From assembly GCA_964187785.1 (NCBI GenBank), contig OZ076409.1, forward strand, positions 55,864,001-55,928,000: DNA of 64,000 nt, given 5' to 3'. This document shows, in pieces, positions 9,949 through 44,412 of the stretch. Origin of the DNA: Amphiscolops sp. MND2022 (taxonomy: Eukaryota). The notes beneath the pieces were generated by a model. It was not told the DNA's origin, searched no databases, and worked only from the letters and a program-made list of their open reading frames with translations. Within the stretch, counting starts at the first letter, position 1. Each line of letters begins with the position of its first letter. Made by a program: the position numbers and the translations under genes.

Positions 9949-10225
9949 CCATGATAGCTCTTCCAATGAAGAACATTTCGTAAGAATTAGCATAATAGCA
10001 TAGGGATTGCAAAAGAGATCCAACTAGCAGGAGAACGTTGTTTCCCAGCATGATGCGCTTCCGTCCATATTTTTTGCTTAGAAGGGCTGCCAAGATACAA
10101 CCCAGAGGAGCAAAAAGGGCCCATACTGCCACACATGACGCCCAGAACCATTTGAGACTCGTTTCTGAAAATTTGGATCCAGTTCGTTCAAGCTTTGCTT
10201 CTTGGAAAAAGTCTTTGATGTTGCC
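9949..10225 (-). CDS. SLC2A: SLC2A/GLUT-family transporter gene B, coding exon 2
   Basis: TTTAG|GNIKDFFQEAK...WFWASCVAVWALFAPLG...KYGRKRIML...YEMFFIGRAIMG|GTTAG. 277 nt, the same length and phases as exon 2 of gene A. Confidence 0.9.
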
Positions 10226-11202: not shown

Positions 11203-11361
11203 GGCGGGGTTATTGATCACTCCGGTGGTATACCCAAAAATGAAAGCAGTTCCACACACGGAGCTGAATGCAGACAGAACAAGTTTCCCAGTCACGTGTT
11301 TTGGCTTCCTAACAGCCGTGTACTTGTCCGAAGTCGTAGTTTGAGCTTCCAAAGTCGCCAT
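11203..11361 (-). CDS. SLC2A: SLC2A/GLUT-family transporter gene B, coding exon 1
   Basis: ATG at 11361: MATLEAQTTTSDKYTAVRKPKHVTGKLVLSAFSSVCGTAFIFGYTTGVINNPA|GTTAGT. Contains the GLUT TM1 motif FGYxTGVIN; phase 0. Not in the supplied ORF track. Confidence 0.9.
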
Positions 11362-28393: not shown

Positions 28394-29167
28394 AAACTTT
28401 CCAAAATGCAGCGATATTTTAGCGCTGTAAGTAGCATTCTCGAAGGAAAGATCTTTTCACAAGTCGACATCAAATGAACACTGTCAGAAAAATCAGCCGA
28501 TTCAGCACACGAAAATGAACAATGTGGAGTTCGCTTACTCTATTCTATACAATGAAGGCACAATAGATCTGCGGCCAACACTATCGCAATTCATATAATC
28601 AAAGTTAGCAGACTCTGACATGTTACTAAACACCGCACACAGTAATCATCGAAACTGTTTCCTTATTTCCTCAAAGGGGAAACCGCAGTGAAAGAACTTC
28701 GTATCATCTGGTATTTTTAACAAATGAAACGCTTCGAAATCTTTTCTCATATAAGATCGCGAAGACAAAGGGAATCTTCATTAGGTAGCTCACATAGTCT
28801 GTACAGAAAATTGAAGCCTGTAAATCCTATTGTTCCGGAGTGAAATGCGCTCATTTTCAAAACAACGGTGACAAAAATCCATGTTTTTAAATGGGGGAGA
28901 TCATAAAATATAATGGTGATAACTAGCTGTCTTGTTTCTAAACTTTCAGTGCCAATTAATCTAAAACTGTAATTCAGCATTTAAAAATTCATTTAGTATA
29001 GAGTATATCATGAAAAAATTAGATAACAGGGGAAGACGCATTTTGAGAAAATGCGGAAAATGTCACATCGAAGTAACATTTTCTAACTACTGTAAGCAGT
29101 AATAACTTTGAACTAAAATACTTTTAATGCTTAACTAATCAGCTTCAGTAATAAGCAACTACTGTAC

Positions 29168-29936
29168 TTATGTGCTGATAGCTCCGTGACTCCTTGAATT
29201 GGACGAATCCAAATCGGGCTTGGCCACAATGGGACAATCTTCCTCATTTTCAAACAAAGTCTGCTCTCTATCGGCGAACATCTGCACAATCTGGTTGACA
29301 CTCTTTCCGGCAACTTCGGGCAGTCTTATATACAGGTAGGCTATGAAAATACACAAGAGCACGAAGAATATCATGAACACCCAACCGCACAGTACATCAA
29401 TCAAAGGTGAGAATCCGATTGCAATGGCAAAGTTGCAGAGCCAGTTGACAGTGTTTGCAATAGAGAGGGCTTTGGGTCTGGCTCCGGACGTGAACAATTC
29501 GGGTGCAATCAGCCAAGGAATGGCCCCGGGGCCCAGGGAGAAAAAGGCGATGTAGATAAATATGAAGGCAATAGCAACATACAGTCCCCCGTCGTTCACG
29601 TGTATTCCGCTACAAGTTTGGTCATCGTCTGTAGCGAGGTCGCTAAGTAATAGTCCGACCCCTAACGTGCAAACGCACATTCCGAGTAGACCAATCAGAT
29701 GAGACTTTCGTCTTCCCAATTTGTCAATGGTGAAGACGGATATGGTTGTGACTATCATGTTAACCAGTCCGGTTATGGCCACCATGTAGTTTGGCAAGTC
29801 CTCGTCTTTGTTCACAGCATCTTCCGGTAAAGCTGCCTTGAAGATAGGAGACGAGTAATAGTTGATTGCGTTGATGCCAGACAATTGTTGCGACATGGCC
29901 ATGATACACGAAATTATGAGAGGTCGTCGGAGATAG
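29168..29936 (-). CDS. SLC2A: SLC2A/GLUT gene A, distal terminal exon 4b (TM7-TM12 and C-tail)
   Basis: TTTTCAG|C-YLRRPLIISCIMAMSQQLSGINAINYYS...DKLGRR...GPGAIPWLIAPELF...RLPEVAGK. The phase-2 acceptor matches the exon 3 donor, giving a 541-aa product. Confidence 0.9.
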
Positions 29937-30214
29937 CTGAAAACAAATCAATCTAATTGTAAAACAGGGTATTCCAATCAGAGCATTATCAATCAGACTG
30001 GAAACAAATCAATAAGGTATTTGAGAAATCGAAAGAAAATCAAACAGTTATATGAACATTTTTGCTATGGTGGAAAGCAAAGTTCAAAAAAGAGAATTTA
30101 AAGTCAATTGAATTTATGTTCATATAGAAATTACTCTTTCTGCATATAAATTTATAGCAAGAAACAAACGGAACTATTCGACCAGTAGGAAGACGGGAAA
30201 ACCTCATTTTTTAC

Positions 30215-30620
30215 AAACAAGCCGGGAAAAGCCCAAGTCGGCGCCATATCTAAGGTTCAAAAATAGCAAAAGGACTTCAAAGTGTCAAGTATTCTCTTTT
30301 ACAGTACCCGAATGAGGAAAAAAATTTCCAAAAATTTTTTGAAATTTTATTGAAGTCTCCGGTAAGTCGCATAGTGCCGAAAAATGTAAAAGGAGGGACC
30401 TTTTGGGATTTTTTGAACATGCAAAATAGGAAAAAAATTGAAGGGGGACCCTTTGGAGACATTGCAAAAAAATTGCGAAAAAAAGTCTCACAAAGCCGAA
30501 ATAACTTAGTCAAGGGCGAGACTCGAACCCACGTCCTTCTGCTTGGCAAACCTCAAAAAAACTCTAGTTAACCTCTATGTCAAGTGCCAGTAGAAGTAGC
30601 AGTTTAGTGAGTCTATGGAC
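30215..30620. mobile_element. Helentron-associated (HINE/DINE-1-like) non-autonomous repeat, partial copy
   Basis: Starts AAACAAGCCGGGAAAAGCCCAAGTCGGCGCCATATCTAAGG and shares blocks with 38003-38400. The right end is uncertain. Confidence 0.55.
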
Positions 30621-31297
30621 CGCTTGATTTTCAAAACCGATTGATCCTACTATCGAGAAATTATAGATTTCAGAGAGAAAATTTTTTTTAGCACATGGGA
30701 AAAGTTTGTTCTTAAATACCAATGTATTCAATCATCCAAACAGAACAAAAAACGAGCTCAAGCACTTTCTCTAGTCTCTGCTCTAGATCAATTGAAAATG
30801 CTTGTAGATTAATTTTTAAAAATTTTAATGCTTCAACTAAATTTTATTCAAAAATTTCTGAAATTATGATGAAACTATATGTAAAATCGATTTGCCGACA
30901 TTACCATCTCTTACAGAAAGATCTGAGCTTTTTCGAGTCGCAAAATTATCTGCGAAAATGATGCTACTAAAAATACTTTCTCGGGCTGTTATGGCTGAAA
31001 TAATCCTTGCCGTGCTCGGTGCTATAATTAAAATCCAATACTTTAACCTATTTTTGGAGGAAAATGTTTTAATATATTGAGATTGATCATAATGATCTTT
31101 TCTTGGAAATTACCTCATACACCAAATGAAAAAACAAGAGAAAACTTTGAGGATGCTATCAAAAATGAAATGACCAGGTTAATTCAGTGAATTAATGAAT
31201 TCTTCAAATCAACTTGTATAGATAGTTACTTGAAATGCCTTGAAATTAATGTTGTCAACTCATTAGGTTTTCAAGTCCGCTTGATTGACATAAAACT

Positions 31298-32063
31298 TCA
31301 AAATCGGCTGTTTTCCAAGCTAGTTGCTCTATCTGTATTTCGGGCTTCATTTTCGACAATTGGTTGTTTTTCACTGGCCATGAAGCTCTGACTCATCAGA
31401 GCAAACATGAGGACAATTTCGTTCACAGGTTTTCCTTTAACTTCAGGCAATTTGAAGTAGAGGAAGGTGGTGAAGAAACAGAGGAACCCAAAAAAGATCA
31501 TAAACACCCACCCACACAGAGCACCTATGAGTGGGGGGAACCCAAGAGCTATGGAAAAGTTACAAAGCCAGTTGACAGTATTGGCAATGGATAGAGCCTT
31601 TGGTCTGGCCCCGGCTGAAAAAAGTTCCGGGGTAATAAGCCAGGGTATAGGACCCGGACCAATGGACACGGATATGATATAAACAAAGATGAAAACAATT
31701 GCAATGTATATTCCTGTATCGCCTACGCTGATACCATGGCAAACTTGGTCATCGTCAGTTGCCAAGTCACTGAGTAAGATTCCAGTGGATAAAGCAGCGA
31801 CCGCCATTCCGACTAAGCCAATCAGATGAGACGCTCTTCTTCCGATCCAGTCAATAGTAAAGAGAGATATAACAGTAGCCAAAAAGTTCACTACCCCTGT
31901 TAAGGCTACCAGGTAATTGGGCCAGTCAGCATTTTTTTCCAACATGTCAGCCGGGAGAGCGGCCTTGAAAATAGGTGCTGAGTAATAGTTGATTGCGACA
32001 ATGCCAGACAACTGTTGCGACATCGCCATTGCGCAAGAAACGATCAGAGGTCTTCGCAGCTTT
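31298..32063 (-). CDS. SLC2A: SLC2A/GLUT gene A, proximal terminal exon 4a (TM7-TM12 and C-tail)
   Basis: TGTTCAG|A-KLRRPLIVSCAMAMSQQLSGIVAINYYS...DWIGRR...GPGPIPWLITPELF...KLPEVKGK. Phase-2 acceptor; gives a 540-aa product. Confidence 0.9.
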
Positions 32064-33849
32064 CTGAACAGCGAAGAGCAAATTAGAAGCAGAAACATAC
32101 AAAGCAACAAATGGCGATGATCGACGAAGAACATGCACAGATGATCAGCTGCTATGGTCGGGAATCAGGAAACGGTGCAAGTAAAACCAAGAAGCTTTGT
32201 CACGAGCGCTCAACTACCGCAACGTCTGCATCCAAAACACTTTTCTCGACATGCATTCTTTGATATTTTCATGATAATTATGATCTCATCCAATCAAATC
32301 GCATAGCTTCTTCGGAAAGTATTCCTACGCAGAACATTTGGCTAAACTTCCACTTCTGGACAAAAAGAACCCACTGCGACCGTTTTATGATTACCCTTTA
32401 ATGAGTTTTGACGAAATTGATGAGAGTGAAGTTCAATGAAAATCTATATAATATACTTTATAGTGTATGTCGAGCCTAGACCAGTTGACCGAGTAATCGG
32501 TTAAATAAGTGTTAAAACCGGTTTAAAAATTTTATTTCATCAACGAAAAAGCGGCAGAAAGTCGGAATTGAACTACCAGTGGATGCACTTCGTTTTGGTT
32601 ATATGTGATATTAGTTTTGTACAGTTCTACACAGTAATTACATTTACTTGTTACCAGTGCTATTTCGCAAGGAATTTTCAGCACATATGTTTGAATTTGA
32701 AAACCATAATTTTTTTGAATTCGATAGAAATTCGTTCAAATTATAATACAGTTTATTGAAAGACTTTTTTTTCAATGGTAGTTGAGATAATTTTTCGAAT
32801 AACCGATTATTTTAGACGATTGATAGGTTAGGTGACAGTCTGAACTAGTCCAGACTCTGATTGTATGTAAATGTATATATTATACTTTCTACTTCAGAGT
32901 TTTGTACAGAATCCAAGATACTGATTTCAAGTCTCAACCTTTCTTCAACATATCGCTTCAGACCCCAAGGCGGCCTTCGTAAAGAGCTGCTGCTTGTCAC
33001 GCTGCTGCGAGTCATATTACTCACATCCACTTTGCGTCGGTATTTGAGCCAAAAGATGGAAAGGATTGATTATATCGCAGCCGATAAGTCTCCAGCCAAT
33101 AAATGATTGTCATCTCATTGTTCCAGCCATGATGCCTTAAGATGATAGTCAATTGATGATCTCAATTGATGATAGTCGCGTCCTAATTAGACTGATAGAC
33201 TTGTTTTGACATGACGGATGAGAGTGATGCCTCATGAAGAAGACATTGATTTGCTAACCAACCCTATGGGGTTTAGGACATTGTCAGACTTTTCATCGAA
33301 GCGTTTCGTCTCCTTCTAAATGTCTTGCTAATTTCACTTAGCAAGGCACAATTACTAGTCTGGAACGTTTTGCATTTGCATTGTTTTTTTCTGAGTTCTG
33401 CAAATTTAGTTTACTTAAACAGCTTTGATTTTTTCAGAAATAGATCATTGCTCTTTTTGATTTTGGTATTGTTTCAAAATACTTTCAGAAGCTGAATAAA
33501 CCAAATTTGGATCGGAACGAGGACGCAATCATTTCTAGCATTCAATATATGGTCTCGCTGATGTATTGTTTGTTCTTCAAGGTGTTGCCAGTAAATTCTA
33601 AAGTTCAGTTCATCAGCCACCGGGTTCAAAAATGTGAAAAAAATCAATAATTATTGGAGATGTTCCAACGCATAAATCTGATTGTTGGGACATACCGACG
33701 ACGCAGTCATCAGCAATTAAGGGACGTTCGTTTCAAAAAGTGCAATCAACTACAAAACAAAATTTAAACGAGAGAAATGATTTGTCGAAACCTTTGGAAC
33801 ACGCCGAAACAGCCCGAGTCCGTTTGCAGCTCAAAAAGAGCAAAGTCTT

Positions 33850-35150
33850 TCAAACGCGAAGTTGTGAAGAAACGTAAGTTGAAAGCTGCCTGATGGATGA
33901 ATCTAGATCTTGGGGAAGCGTTCGATAGCGTCTGGTATAATCTTCTACTGTTTAAACATTGGATAGCAGGTATTCGCGGACCCTTGTTCATTCTACTCCA
34001 AACTTTCTTCAAGGCAGTGTGCTATCACTCTTATAAATCATCTTTTACATCACAGAATGCTGAAAACACCACGGGTATCAAGTTATAGTATGTAGATGAC
34101 TCGCTTACACTGTTGTGGAAATCTCTCTTCATCGAATTTTTCAAAGAAATCCTAACCTCGTCAAAAGGTGCCGTACATAAAAAATTAGAATAAACGGATC
34201 CAAAACTGAAATAATGTCTACAAATTCTGATGTGGGGACGACTCCCATTTTCACCTGGGAACTGATTCATGCAAAGTTCGAAACAAAACCAAATTTCTGG
34301 ATCGATAGTTGATAATTCCTGTACATTCAAGGATCAGACGAAGTTAGATGGTAGTCCATTGTAAGACCAAATGGAGAGAACTTCAGATTCATTTCACTGC
34401 TGGATGGGGTCTGTGCCGAATCACACTAACTGTCTTGTACGAAACGGTGGTTCTACCAACTCTACTGGACTCTGCTCTTGTATGGTCGAAGCAAAAAGAG
34501 ACAAAACTGCAAAACTTCCAGACTTTTGTCATTCGAAATGTATTCCAAACCAGCTTTAATCTCAGCGCGATGGCTGATGATGCCAAATTGGGCACACCAC
34601 TTAACGACATCGTTTGTCGAAACGAATCCGCGGAATTCTTCATCAAAGTACACTAGCAGACAGACTTTTTGGCCGAATTAGAAAACGAAGGATCTGTAAC
34701 TTTTGTAACTATCCACAGAAACATACTCGAAACTTTTTACAATCAAAAGAACTTGAAACAAACTGACCCATTGAGCTACACTGGTAATATCAGTCGAACC
34801 CACATACTGAGACAATGGAAATCCAGAGGGCAATACCCGGACTTCGAAACTAACCTTTGTAAAATTGTACCTTGTGTATACACAGACCCCGTTTGATAAA
34901 ATTCACTATACAGAAGGAAATCATGAGGAACGCCATCGAGTTACTCTTGGACATCATCCCGTCACTGAAAAACTTAGCTCTCAAAAGAAGCTTGACAGCC
35001 GGTACCATGTCCTCCTGACACAAAAAAGATACTGCCATACTTTTTGTTTTGATTGCCAGAAAGTGGTGACATAAAAGCTGTCCAAGGGAAACTTTACCTT
35101 GTGGGACAAAAACGAATATTGAACTAAACAAAACTAATAAAAAGTAGTGG
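33850..35150 (+). mobile_element. Decayed non-LTR (LINE) retrotransposon RT fragment
   Basis: LDLGEAFDSVWYNLLLFK...GIRGPL (RT LDxxKAFD motif); L*YVDD near 34090; LYETVVLPTLLDSALVWS. Boundaries are approximate. Confidence 0.7.
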
Positions 35151-36294
35151 AGATCTTGAAAACATAAACCAATACTTTTCAACATGTGAATATGCCCGCA
35201 TAAAGGGGCTAAAGTAGAATATATGTATTTTGCAAACTCTAATCAACATTAGAGTTCTGGTAAAAATTTACAGAACCTACCTTGGAGATTCAGCTATTTT
35301 TTTGACTGAAAACATCGCAAAACCAAAATTTGTGGATTTTATTTGAAGCCACAAATTGCCAAAAGGGAAACCTTCAGGCTTGCAAAACACGTTTTTTGAA
35401 AACATCATAAAAACCCAGGGGGATCTTTGATCCCTTTTGATATTTCAAACAAAAGAAGTCAAGCACATCGCGGGATTGGAACCAACGTACTTGCTTACTA
35501 TTACCAATCACCATGCAATGACTCACGCGTTAATCTCCAGGCCTAGTGGAAAGTACTTGGCAGCTTTCCACCAGCATCTAATAGTTTCTGGCCTAATTGT
35601 TGGAATAAAAATAGTGGAATAAACGTTTTAATGAAATTCCTGCTCTAAAACTATGATTTTTGTTAAATATGAAAACAAAACGTACAAAAGTTCAGCGAAA
35701 TTGCGGTACAATTTGTTAGAGAGGCAATCAAATATTTATTATTGAAATCCCTTCGGAGCAGTAATAATAGTAGCGTTTAGTTCCAATAGAGCGCTGATTA
35801 AAAAAATCATTCAAGCTGTCACGATTTGCAATTACCAGTACCCTCTTCCCAGAAATTGCTGAAAAATTCCGTGGTTCCCGAAATGAAAAAATTTAGAACA
35901 CAAACTACAAGAACAAAAACACAGTGAAACAACAAAAAATTGTTTCAATGTTAGGTAAATCCTTTATCCTTTTGTTTAGCAGAAAATAGGAGTTTAGTAA
36001 GCTTTCATGAAGCACGTTCAATAAAACTGCATGACTAGAAAAAAAGGATCTTTTTATTCAAACTTGAAACTCTGCTGAATAGAAATGGATTAAAGCTCTA
36101 AAGCTTGTTTGAAACAAAGACTAAGAAAACATCCTCCACGGAGAAGCTTGGATGAAGTGATTTTTTGAGACGGAATTTATAATTACAGAATGCAGAAATT
36201 ATGCGGTCATGAATTATTGAAAAAACTGCAGAGTTTTTGAAAAGATGAGAATCAGTCTGATTTTGTACGAGGCAAAGCGAAATTGCGAACTAAC

Positions 36295-36706
36295 CCAATT
36301 TTAATGAAGTCGTGGTAGCTAACAGGTGGCTCTGACTTATCCTTGCGATCTTCCTCAATAATTTCCTCCATCTCTTCTTCAATGCTGGCATCTTTGCCCC
36401 TCAGCCTGGACAAAGCCTCTCTGCACCCGTCTCTGTCGCCCTCCTCGATCAACAAGTATCGTGGACTAGAAGGACACATGGGCAGAAATATACACTGGAT
36501 CAACCCAAAGGCCAGAGTCAAGTTGAACAACTGAGGCCAGTAGTCTGGACCTCCGAGGATGGATTGGAATCCGAAGATTTGAGCCACCAGGATCCCGAAC
36601 ACACACGTCAGCTGGAACGTGACTCCGATGCCACCTCTAATTGCTTTAGGAGCTATTTCGGAGAGGTACATAGGACAAACAGCTGTTCCCACTCCGTTGT
36701 TTATTC
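36295..36706 (-). CDS. SLC2A: SLC2A/GLUT gene A, coding exon 3
   Basis: CACAG|GINNGVGTAVCPMYLSEIAPKAIRGGIG...QIFG...MCPSSPRYLLI...DFIKIG|GTTAGT. Phase 1 in, phase 2 out. Confidence 0.93.
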
Positions 36707-37110: not shown

Positions 37111-37387
37111 CAGTGATAAGACGTCCAATGAGGAACATTTCATAAGAGTCAGCGGGCTTAGAGCATGATTGTAAAAGCGATCCGATTAAGAGAAGAACAT
37201 TGTTGACCAACATGGTCCGTTTCCGGCCAAATTTTTTGGCCAGTGCAGCACCCAGGAAGCAACCAAGGGGGGCTACCAATGCCCATACAGCAACACACAT
37301 GGACCAGTACCACTTAAGGGAGTTGTCTGAGAACTTGGAACCGTGTCGCTTCATTTTGGCCTCGTTGAAAAAATCTTTGATATTGTC
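37111..37387 (-). CDS. SLC2A: SLC2A/GLUT gene A, coding exon 2
   Basis: TTGCAG|DNIKDFFNEAK...KFGRKRTMLVNN...YEMFLIGRLITG|GTAGGT; 277 nt. Confidence 0.93.
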
Positions 37388-42291: not shown

Positions 42292-42459
42292 CGAGGGGTT
42301 ATTGATGACTCCGGTGCAGTACCCAAACACGAGTGAAGTGCCACATACTGCACTGGCCGTGGAGAGGGCAAGAGTGCCAGTAACGATCTTGCCTTGTCTG
42401 GGTTGACCGGACAATGAACTGACTCGACCTTCGTTGTTGAACGTGTCCATGAGCCTCAT
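42292..42459 (-). CDS. SLC2A: SLC2A/GLUT gene A, coding exon 1
   Basis: MRLMDTFNNEGRV...TGTLALSTASAVCGTSLVFGYCTGVINNPS|GTTAGT; phase 0. Confidence 0.9.
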
Positions 42460-43083
42460 ACAGCACTCAACCAGGGCAAAAGATCAAGTCACTGGATACT
42501 TTTCCTCGTTTACTTCTCGCAATAGGAACCCTGCAATAAACTCTATATGGATGGGCAGTGGTACGATTTTGTACCAGTTAGTTTCTGCAAACTTCTGAAG
42601 GCACCAGTTGGCCATGTGGTAAAGAAAACTCTTGAATAAGATTTTCAGACCATTTTACATAGCATTGCACGCCTTTTCGCGGAAAAAATTGAGCGCAGAT
42701 TTTCGGTTTTTCTCGTTTCCGTTTGTGGCCACTTTATCCCACTGGTATCAACATTGAGTCCAAGCGAAACATGCTGAAATGCACTCAAAGACATGAGGTG
42801 TGCAATGTTTTGGCGCAAAGTCCGGAGCGAAGCCCAGCAGTTCGAAAATCAATTTGAAATCCCTGATTGTCTTCTTTCGAACGCTCAATAAATCATTTGT
42901 CGGACTCGAATAGTTTGGAAGATGTTGTGGTTTGAAGTTGAAGCACCAGATTTTTGGTGTATCCGAAAATTCCCCCGTCCATTCAGGGTTAAACATTCAA
43001 TGTTTTATTGCAAAAACAATGTACGATATGATACAGCCGATCATTAGCGCGATTAAGAAAGTCGATATAGTGAGAGTCTTAAT

Positions 43084-44275: not shown

Positions 44276-44412
44276 AGCACTGCTTCCTTGGAATTACGAG
44301 TGTCCCGTTAAGTGACAGAGGCGAATAAAATATATATTCATTTTGATGGTATATATATTTTATTCGCCTCTGTCACTTAACGGGACACTCGTAATTCCAA
44401 GGAAGCAGTGCT
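44276..44412. repeat. Perfect inverted repeat, 62-bp arms with a 13-nt loop
   Basis: 44276-44337 is the exact reverse complement of 44351-44412. Confidence 0.95.

Follow-up and report, generated by a model that had tools for sequence, protein, structure and literature searches.

Can a GLUT gene, by the choice of its last exon, exchange the half of the protein that binds sugar? The question is raised by a stretch of 64,000 nucleotides (nt) from Amphiscolops sp. MND2022 (GenBank assembly GCA_964187785.1, contig OZ076409.1, forward-strand positions 55,864,001 to 55,928,000; hereafter the window), in which the three coding exons of a minus-strand GLUT gene are followed by two homologous terminal exons, 4a and 4b (Table 1). 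We consider it probable, from the genomic layout and the constraint on both copies, that 4a and 4b are alternative last exons of one GLUT gene, forming a C-terminal tandem-exon swap. The Sugar_tr family (Pfam) was matched by all 4 exon translations scanned (171.8, 183.8, 104.5, and 57.3 bits, with a curated cut-off of 22.3), placing the predicted product in the sugar porter / GLUT (SLC2A-like) family, with facilitated hexose transport as its predicted activity.

One front half and two terminal exons

The exon 3 donor (TGG/GTTAGT at 36294) ends the exon two bases into a Gly codon and ranks 2 of 428 GT sites with a matrix built from paralogue donors; the splice-site matrices rest on 38 and 30 homology-placed sites, with 30 training donors. 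A CAG acceptor precedes each of 4a and 4b, and each exon completes the Gly codon of exon 3 and reads to its own stop. Acceptor scores were 7.3 for 4b and 5.1 for 4a, compared with a leave-one-out median of 7.0 (range 1.3-13.6) for real sites. The sequence-only reading had claimed that exon 3 is in frame with both terminal exons, giving 540 amino acids with 4a and 541 with 4b, and the acceptors and open frames confirm this: these are the lengths from the ATG at 42459, and from the ATG at 42450, where exon 1 (42450-42292, minus strand) starts if the second in-frame ATG is not used, they are 537 and 538. At 42531, which is 80 nt above the start codon, ttttattgcag resembles an acceptor, so that an untranslated first exon may lie farther upstream.

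Each terminal exon covers Sugar_tr positions 252-452 of 452 and GLUT1 residues 269-468, and therefore encodes transmembrane helices (TM) 7 to 12 plus the tail. The two are 69% identical in DNA over 671 nt and 71% identical in protein over the first 221 residues, and their starts are separated by 2,127 nt. Homology begins approximately 5 nt before the acceptor, and no meaningful alignment was found in the flanks (scores versus shuffle maxima of 34/31, 31/31, 34/36, 25/24, and 20/26). As in a tandem exon duplication, these are two homologous 3' coding exons of one gene, in the same phase and with their own stops. Comparison of the 1,361-nt spacer found no front-half exon or remnant, which bears out the earlier statement that N-terminal GLUT exons are absent between 4a and 4b; a short dispersed repeat lies inside the spacer (30215-30404).

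The front half occurs once. The DNA of exons 2 and 3 has a single match in the 1.07-Gb genome, the exon 3 protein has a single 100% match among 24 matches in the genome, and no second front half for this gene was found among 1929 contigs. The 142 kb around the locus, which contain no N, hold two front halves and three back halves, belonging to this gene and to a neighboring paralogue in tandem with it (gene 2); the back half of gene 2 is found 24-32 kb to the left of the window. In each of the 15 other GLUT genes examined, a front half is paired with a single back half, a count that leaves out three weaker or duplicate loci (C1 13.5 Mb, C7 42.3 Mb, and C1560).

Both terminal exons have been kept as coding sequence. 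The ratio of nonsynonymous to synonymous substitution rates (dN/dS) between them, a check that the sequence-only reading had proposed, was 0.076 (95% 0-0.154; NG86, 221 codons, bootstrap), indicating purifying selection on both. It combines a dN of 0.22 with a dS of about 2.9, which is near saturation (bootstrap lower bound 1.48), the proportion of synonymous differences (pS) being 0.73 and 24 of 68 four-fold sites remaining identical. A simulated neutral frame stayed free of stops in 1 of 1000 runs at d = 0.5 and in none of 1000 at d = 0.75. The GC content at third codon positions (GC3) of 4a (0.48) and 4b (0.57) is coding-like, compared with 0.53 and 0.57 in exons 2 and 3 and with an overall GC of 0.33-0.37 in the spacer and intron.

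Two gene calls of a related species in ENA, P0013 and P0014, are orthologues of 4a and 4b, respectively. Trees were built with 35 rows and with 17 of these, long branches being left out of the smaller set; support was 100/99 for P0013 with 4a, and 98/95 (35 rows) or 94/90 (17 rows) for P0014 with 4b. Since each copy has one orthologue in the related species, the pair is older than the species split, and the near-equal identities (86.9% for P0013 with 4a and 86.7% for P0014 with 4b) mean that both copies have been held equally since. Across the acceptor position P0013 has L-F-R-K, like 4a, and its residues farther upstream do not match. Before the split, the stem branch of 4a (0.38) was longer than that of 4b (0.11), with even rates afterwards (17 rows), which suggests a burst of change in the 4a lineage followed by constraint.

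Candidate poly(A) signals stand behind both exons. Those behind 4a (30848 and 30829) come without a shuffle control, and such hexamers are common in AT-rich DNA. Among 37 short inverted-repeat pairs (no control), none was conspicuous as an element that could guide exon choice by pairing, and there is no tRNA gene in 27-47 kb of the window.

The sugar-binding half and the two predicted isoforms

The sequence-only reading placed most sugar contacts of GLUTs in the C-domain, and structural work backs this: the N-bundle supplies a single contact, and it is TM7b and TM10b of the C-bundle that drive binding and gating (PMC8154325, PMC7462842). Asn288 moves inward and holds the 3- and 4-OH of glucose, and the TM7b Asn is termed strictly conserved (PMC8154325). 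Using the contact list of PMC7462842, we found that 4b keeps Q282, Q283, N288, and N317 plus W388, N411, W412, and N415, and that Q282, Q283, N317, W388, N411, W412, and N415 are kept by 4a and 4b alike. Exon 4b also agrees with the named acoel A genes at 21-22 of 22 tabulated positions; judged by these residues, its predicted binding site is the ancestral one.

Exon 4a is the derived copy. At the N288 position it reads Val, which from AAC to GTC takes two substitutions; P0013, the 4a of the related species, keeps Asn there. Its TM10 has Ser-Val in place of the ancestral Phe-Phe (F378-F379 of GLUT1), a change shared with P0013, and both species have Pro for Ala at 385 in the 4a lineage. Both 4a and 4b have Ser at E380 and AMS for the QLS motif, a pattern shared by the named acoel relatives; by these two criteria, the predicted isoforms are not vertebrate class I GLUTs in the strict sense. 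The tails of 4a and 4b differ wholly, which could also change trafficking. Hydropathy plots gave 10 and 11 of the 12 expected helix peaks in the two predicted isoforms. AlphaFold, applied to 4b alone, gave six long helices and a tail helix; the model is too poor to carry weight, with a mean predicted local distance difference test score (pLDDT) of 59.8 and a root-mean-square deviation of about 9 A to GLUT3.

Under the alternative-last-exon reading, isoform A would come from transcripts cleaved at a poly(A) site behind 4a, and isoform B from read-through with splicing from 36294 to 29936, skipping 4a. The outcome would be two transporters, each predicted to have 12 helices, that share the front half and differ in the sugar-binding half. 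Isoform B would be an ancestral-type hexose carrier; isoform A, with its longer stem branch, altered TM10, and, in this species, altered TM7b, may have another affinity, gating, or substrate. Of the earlier proposal that last-exon choice swaps the substrate-binding half, the swap is supported by the anatomy, purifying selection, retention in a second species, and the single front half, and a possible difference in substrate or kinetics is read from the residue changes. A more far-reaching version, which we regard as rather unlikely, would have one N-terminal scaffold bundle serving two transport bundles, as a switch between a hexose carrier (4b) and either a carrier of another substrate or a non-transporting sugar sensor (4a, which lacks the coupling Asn of TM7b), perhaps regulated by feeding or algal symbiosis.

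Origin of the pair and rival explanations

Among named relatives, the nearest are the GLUT1-like proteins of two acoels, Symsagittifera roscoffensis and Convolutriloba, with 59-68% identity in the back half, and on this basis the animal is probably an acoel other than these two; the 50% representative library added no closer relative. A four-exon plan, with the back half as one exon after a phase-2 intron, is seen in an acoel-like metagenome contig (L030, which ends inside its last exon; the contig scan gave 11 loci, 5 of them aligned), and exon-sized gene calls of S. roscoffensis and Convolutriloba genes (P0007, P0039, and P0017-P0019) match it. The single-exon back half behind a phase-2 intron in related acoels is thus established as an enabling step, since a 2.1-kb tandem copy of it would be splice-compatible immediately. 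Exons 4a and 4b and gene 2 form one starred clade (98/97, 17 rows), separate from two named gene pairs. Descent of 4a and 4b from two separate genes still present in S. roscoffensis and Convolutriloba was rejected for the placement of 4a with the B genes (approximately unbiased test, p-AU 0.013). The front-half tree gave no resolution of the order of events. The pair may stem from a copy of the exon alone or from a gene duplication after which one front half was lost, and both routes end in the same layout. A 944-residue gene call, P0046, was set aside as a parallel, because it holds two whole GLUT-like units within one gene call and does not have the 4a/4b layout.

Several observations weigh against the alternative-last-exon reading or against a functional difference between its products. 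The acceptor matrix does not single out the two exons, which rank 10 (4b) and 31 (4a) among 370 AG sites. Protein searches found no full-length protein with either junction, only relatives at 48-68%; the 90% protein clusters of 4a, 4b, and exon 2 contain genomic fragments only, and an exact look-up of seven front-half open reading frame forms matched one (exon 2, genomic). The adjacency and order of P0013 and P0014, and the lack of a front half between them, are deduced only from their equal contig sizes (each on a contig of 61,533 nt). In the 17-row tree, 4b groups weakly with gene 2 (86/74) and a clade of 4a with 4b is not recovered, a grouping that is nevertheless not rejected (p-AU 0.196). 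The 4a lineage has 15 derived fixed changes versus 6, an excess that is not significant (p=0.078), the Asn-to-Val change is limited to this species, and in GLUT1 the loss of single contacts does not always abolish transport (PMC7462842).

The weak grouping of 4b with gene 2 would fit three tandem genes of which one lost its front half, so that only one exon joins exon 3 and the other, a relic of a separate gene, is expressed through its own promoter, by trans-splicing, or as a half-transporter that starts at the internal Met of MAMSQQ; an in-frame Met does stand close to the start of both exons. We hold this to be improbable, because in both exons the CAG acceptor still stands at the ancestral phase-2 position and the conserved residues [KY]LRRPLI upstream of that Met are retained, and the spacer has no front-half remnant. 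An origin by gene duplication would, moreover, still leave exon 3 as the nearest compatible donor.

Decay of 4a, with the loss of the TM7b Asn marking the onset of its death and only isoform B mattering, is a slender prospect. The strict conservation attributed to this Asn (PMC8154325) and the two substitutions required speak for it, as do the weaker acceptor and lower GC3 of 4a. Yet 4a and its orthologue have matching terminal branches (0.098 and 0.095, respectively), the identity of 4a to this orthologue is the same as that found for 4b, and the frame of 4a is intact; the Asn is also replaced in four other paralogues of this genome (L003, L004, L006, and L007).

An assembly artefact, in which 4b comes from a second gene and the assembler collapsed or dropped the front half of that gene, had been named by the sequence-only reading as what would overturn it, and is judged very unlikely. 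At 69% identity, 4a and 4b are not haplotypes. Besides the absence of N and of another copy noted above, a second front half would have to be nearly identical to the first despite silent-site saturation of the back halves. One ENA contig of 826,891 nt carries gene calls for exon 2, 4a, and 4b together with one gene 2 exon; exon 2 and 4a each occur on two ENA contigs, and 4b recurs on a contig of 198,227 nt as an allele that differs in one residue. As the 826,891-nt contig may derive from the same reads as the assembly, which leaves the artefact some room, it speaks against an assembler slip and is not independent sampling.

Least probable of all is the inclusion of both exons in one mRNA through a cryptic phase-2 donor in 4a (TGG/GTGGGT at 31511, score 8.2, rank 5 of 428), so that the longer protein would contain the greater part of both back halves, as the GTGG form occurs in 0 of 30 training donors, the site lies within a conserved coding motif (LCGWVF) common to 4b and all relatives, and 4a retains its own TM12, tail, and stop, conserved in P0013.

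Known systems, other GLUT genes, and further features of the window

In humans, C-terminal substitutions account for 77 of 236 events derived from tandem exon duplication, the largest of just over 250 residues (PMC8373072, PMC9741552), and they operate through poly(A) or last-exon choice (PMC8373072). The supplement of this catalogue gives 11 SLC events in 10 genes, with swapped stretches of 32-91 residues for 5 of the 11, and names no SLC2A, SLC22A, SLC16A, or MFSD gene. Swapped regions in the human events tend to avoid ligand-binding residues (PMC8373072, PMC9741552); in contrast, the gene described here would exchange nearly the whole binding site and both gates. The splicing mechanism belongs to a known class, and what is unusual is the scale, the working half (a whole six-helix bundle) of a major facilitator superfamily (MFS) transporter. 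In the literature searched, with subscription papers largely outside it, we found no GLUT or MFS gene that exchanges a whole bundle.

Among the systems compared, the closest exchange of an entire functional domain through last exons is that of MASP-1/MASP-3: alternative 3' exons provide two homologous catalytic domains, either of which can follow a common N-terminal part, the MASP-3 domain being a single exon (PMC7432537). This gene differs in being a soluble protease with an autonomous domain and in the unlike exon structures of its two domains (PMC7432537), whereas the GLUT gene has two like single exons, each encoding half a membrane protein that would pack against the shared half. Human GLUT1, GLUT3, and GLUT4 have the Sugar_tr family in common with this gene, and 4a differs further from them at N288, F378, and F379. 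The acoel GLUT1-like genes (XP_063713719-22, XP_063715628, XP_075238810-14, and XP_075239886) have the same intron before the back half; among the isoforms seen (X1/X2), to which XP_075238813 of the Convolutriloba series does not belong, differences are confined to the N-terminus. At the UGT1A locus, variable homologous exons provide the part that gives specificity and constant exons the rest. Clustered protocadherin loci follow the same plan (PMC8373072). Both differ in using variable first exons with alternative promoters, of which 4a and 4b, as two last exons, are the mirror image.

GLUT structures suggest that the N-bundle is a platform and that the C-bundle binds and gates the sugar (PMC8154325, PMC7462842). 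Two C-bundles kept on one N-bundle through silent-site saturation would be a natural test of this division of labor, as the predicted isoforms have identical front halves and back halves that are 29% different, with residues of TM7b and TM10 among the differences. Where the back half has few introns, half of a membrane protein can be copied and be ready for splicing immediately. Host GLUTs are candidate, not validated, carriers of algal sugar in photosymbioses (PMC12138185), and should this animal share the photosymbiosis of its named relatives, one candidate for controlling the uptake of algal sugar would be the choice of isoform.

Table 1. Positions in the window of the parts of the GLUT gene and of gene 2
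Feature	Position	Strand	Remarks
Coding exon 1	42292..42459	-	N-terminus and TM1; ATG at 42459 or 42450; phase-0 donor GTTAGT
Exon 2	37111..37387	-	Part of shared front half
Exon 3	36295..36706	-	Remaining front half and cytoplasmic linker; single phase-2 donor at 36294
Intron 3, short form (to 4a)	32064..36294	-	No GLUT exon inside
Terminal exon 4a, derived copy	31298..32063	-	TM7-TM12 and tail; 254 codons; stop TGA
Val codon GTC in 4a	31997..31999	-	TM7b Asn position (GLUT1 N288); AAC in 4b
Ser-Val in 4a TM10	31667..31672	-	Replaces ancestral Phe-Phe (GLUT1 F378-F379); also in P0013
AATAAA and ATTAAA, candidate proximal poly(A) signals	30824..30848	-	450-470 nt past 4a stop
Spacer, 1,361 nt	29937..31297	-	3' untranslated region of 4a / part of long intron 3
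Terminal exon 4b, ancestral-type copy	29168..29936	-	TM7-TM12 and tail; 255 codons; stop TAA
ATTAAA, candidate distal poly(A) signal	29123..29128	-	40 nt past 4b stop; no control
Gene 2 exon 1	11203..11361	-	Neighboring tandem GLUT paralogue
Gene 2 exon 2	9949..10225	-

Gene 2, which the sequence-only reading did not mention, has its exons 1 and 2 in the window (11361-9949) and its other six exons to the left of it (G000:C1:55851882-55831480). Its eight exons correspond to the four-exon plan with four further introns, and its second intron, of 22 kb, contains retroelement-like sequence. The GLUT family is expanded in this genome, with at least 15 further genes (G000:C13 20.64-20.75, 22.08-22.22, and 45.11-45.19 Mb; C2 5.07 Mb; C7 14.34 and 48.54 Mb). 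These carry additional introns at many differing positions, a scatter that suggests repeated intron gain; the C7 14.34 Mb gene looks intronless. In nine paralogues (L003-L007 and L009-L012) the binding site has been rebuilt, with Arg at the N317 position, Q282 replaced, and G384 changed to Asn or Asp, each in 9 of 9, and judging from these residues they likely carry something other than glucose.

Elsewhere in the window, we identified a pure (GAT)n microsatellite of about 560 nt (25.7-26.3 kb), a near-perfect palindrome (93%) of 137 nt (44276-44412), and, just upstream of the GLUT gene (46.2-54.3 kb), an element with several short open reading frames that is present in two near-identical tandem copies spaced approximately 4,284 nt apart. 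Reverse transcriptase and integrase frames on the minus strand at 60.4-63.7 kb are presumably Gypsy-like, judging by their motifs.

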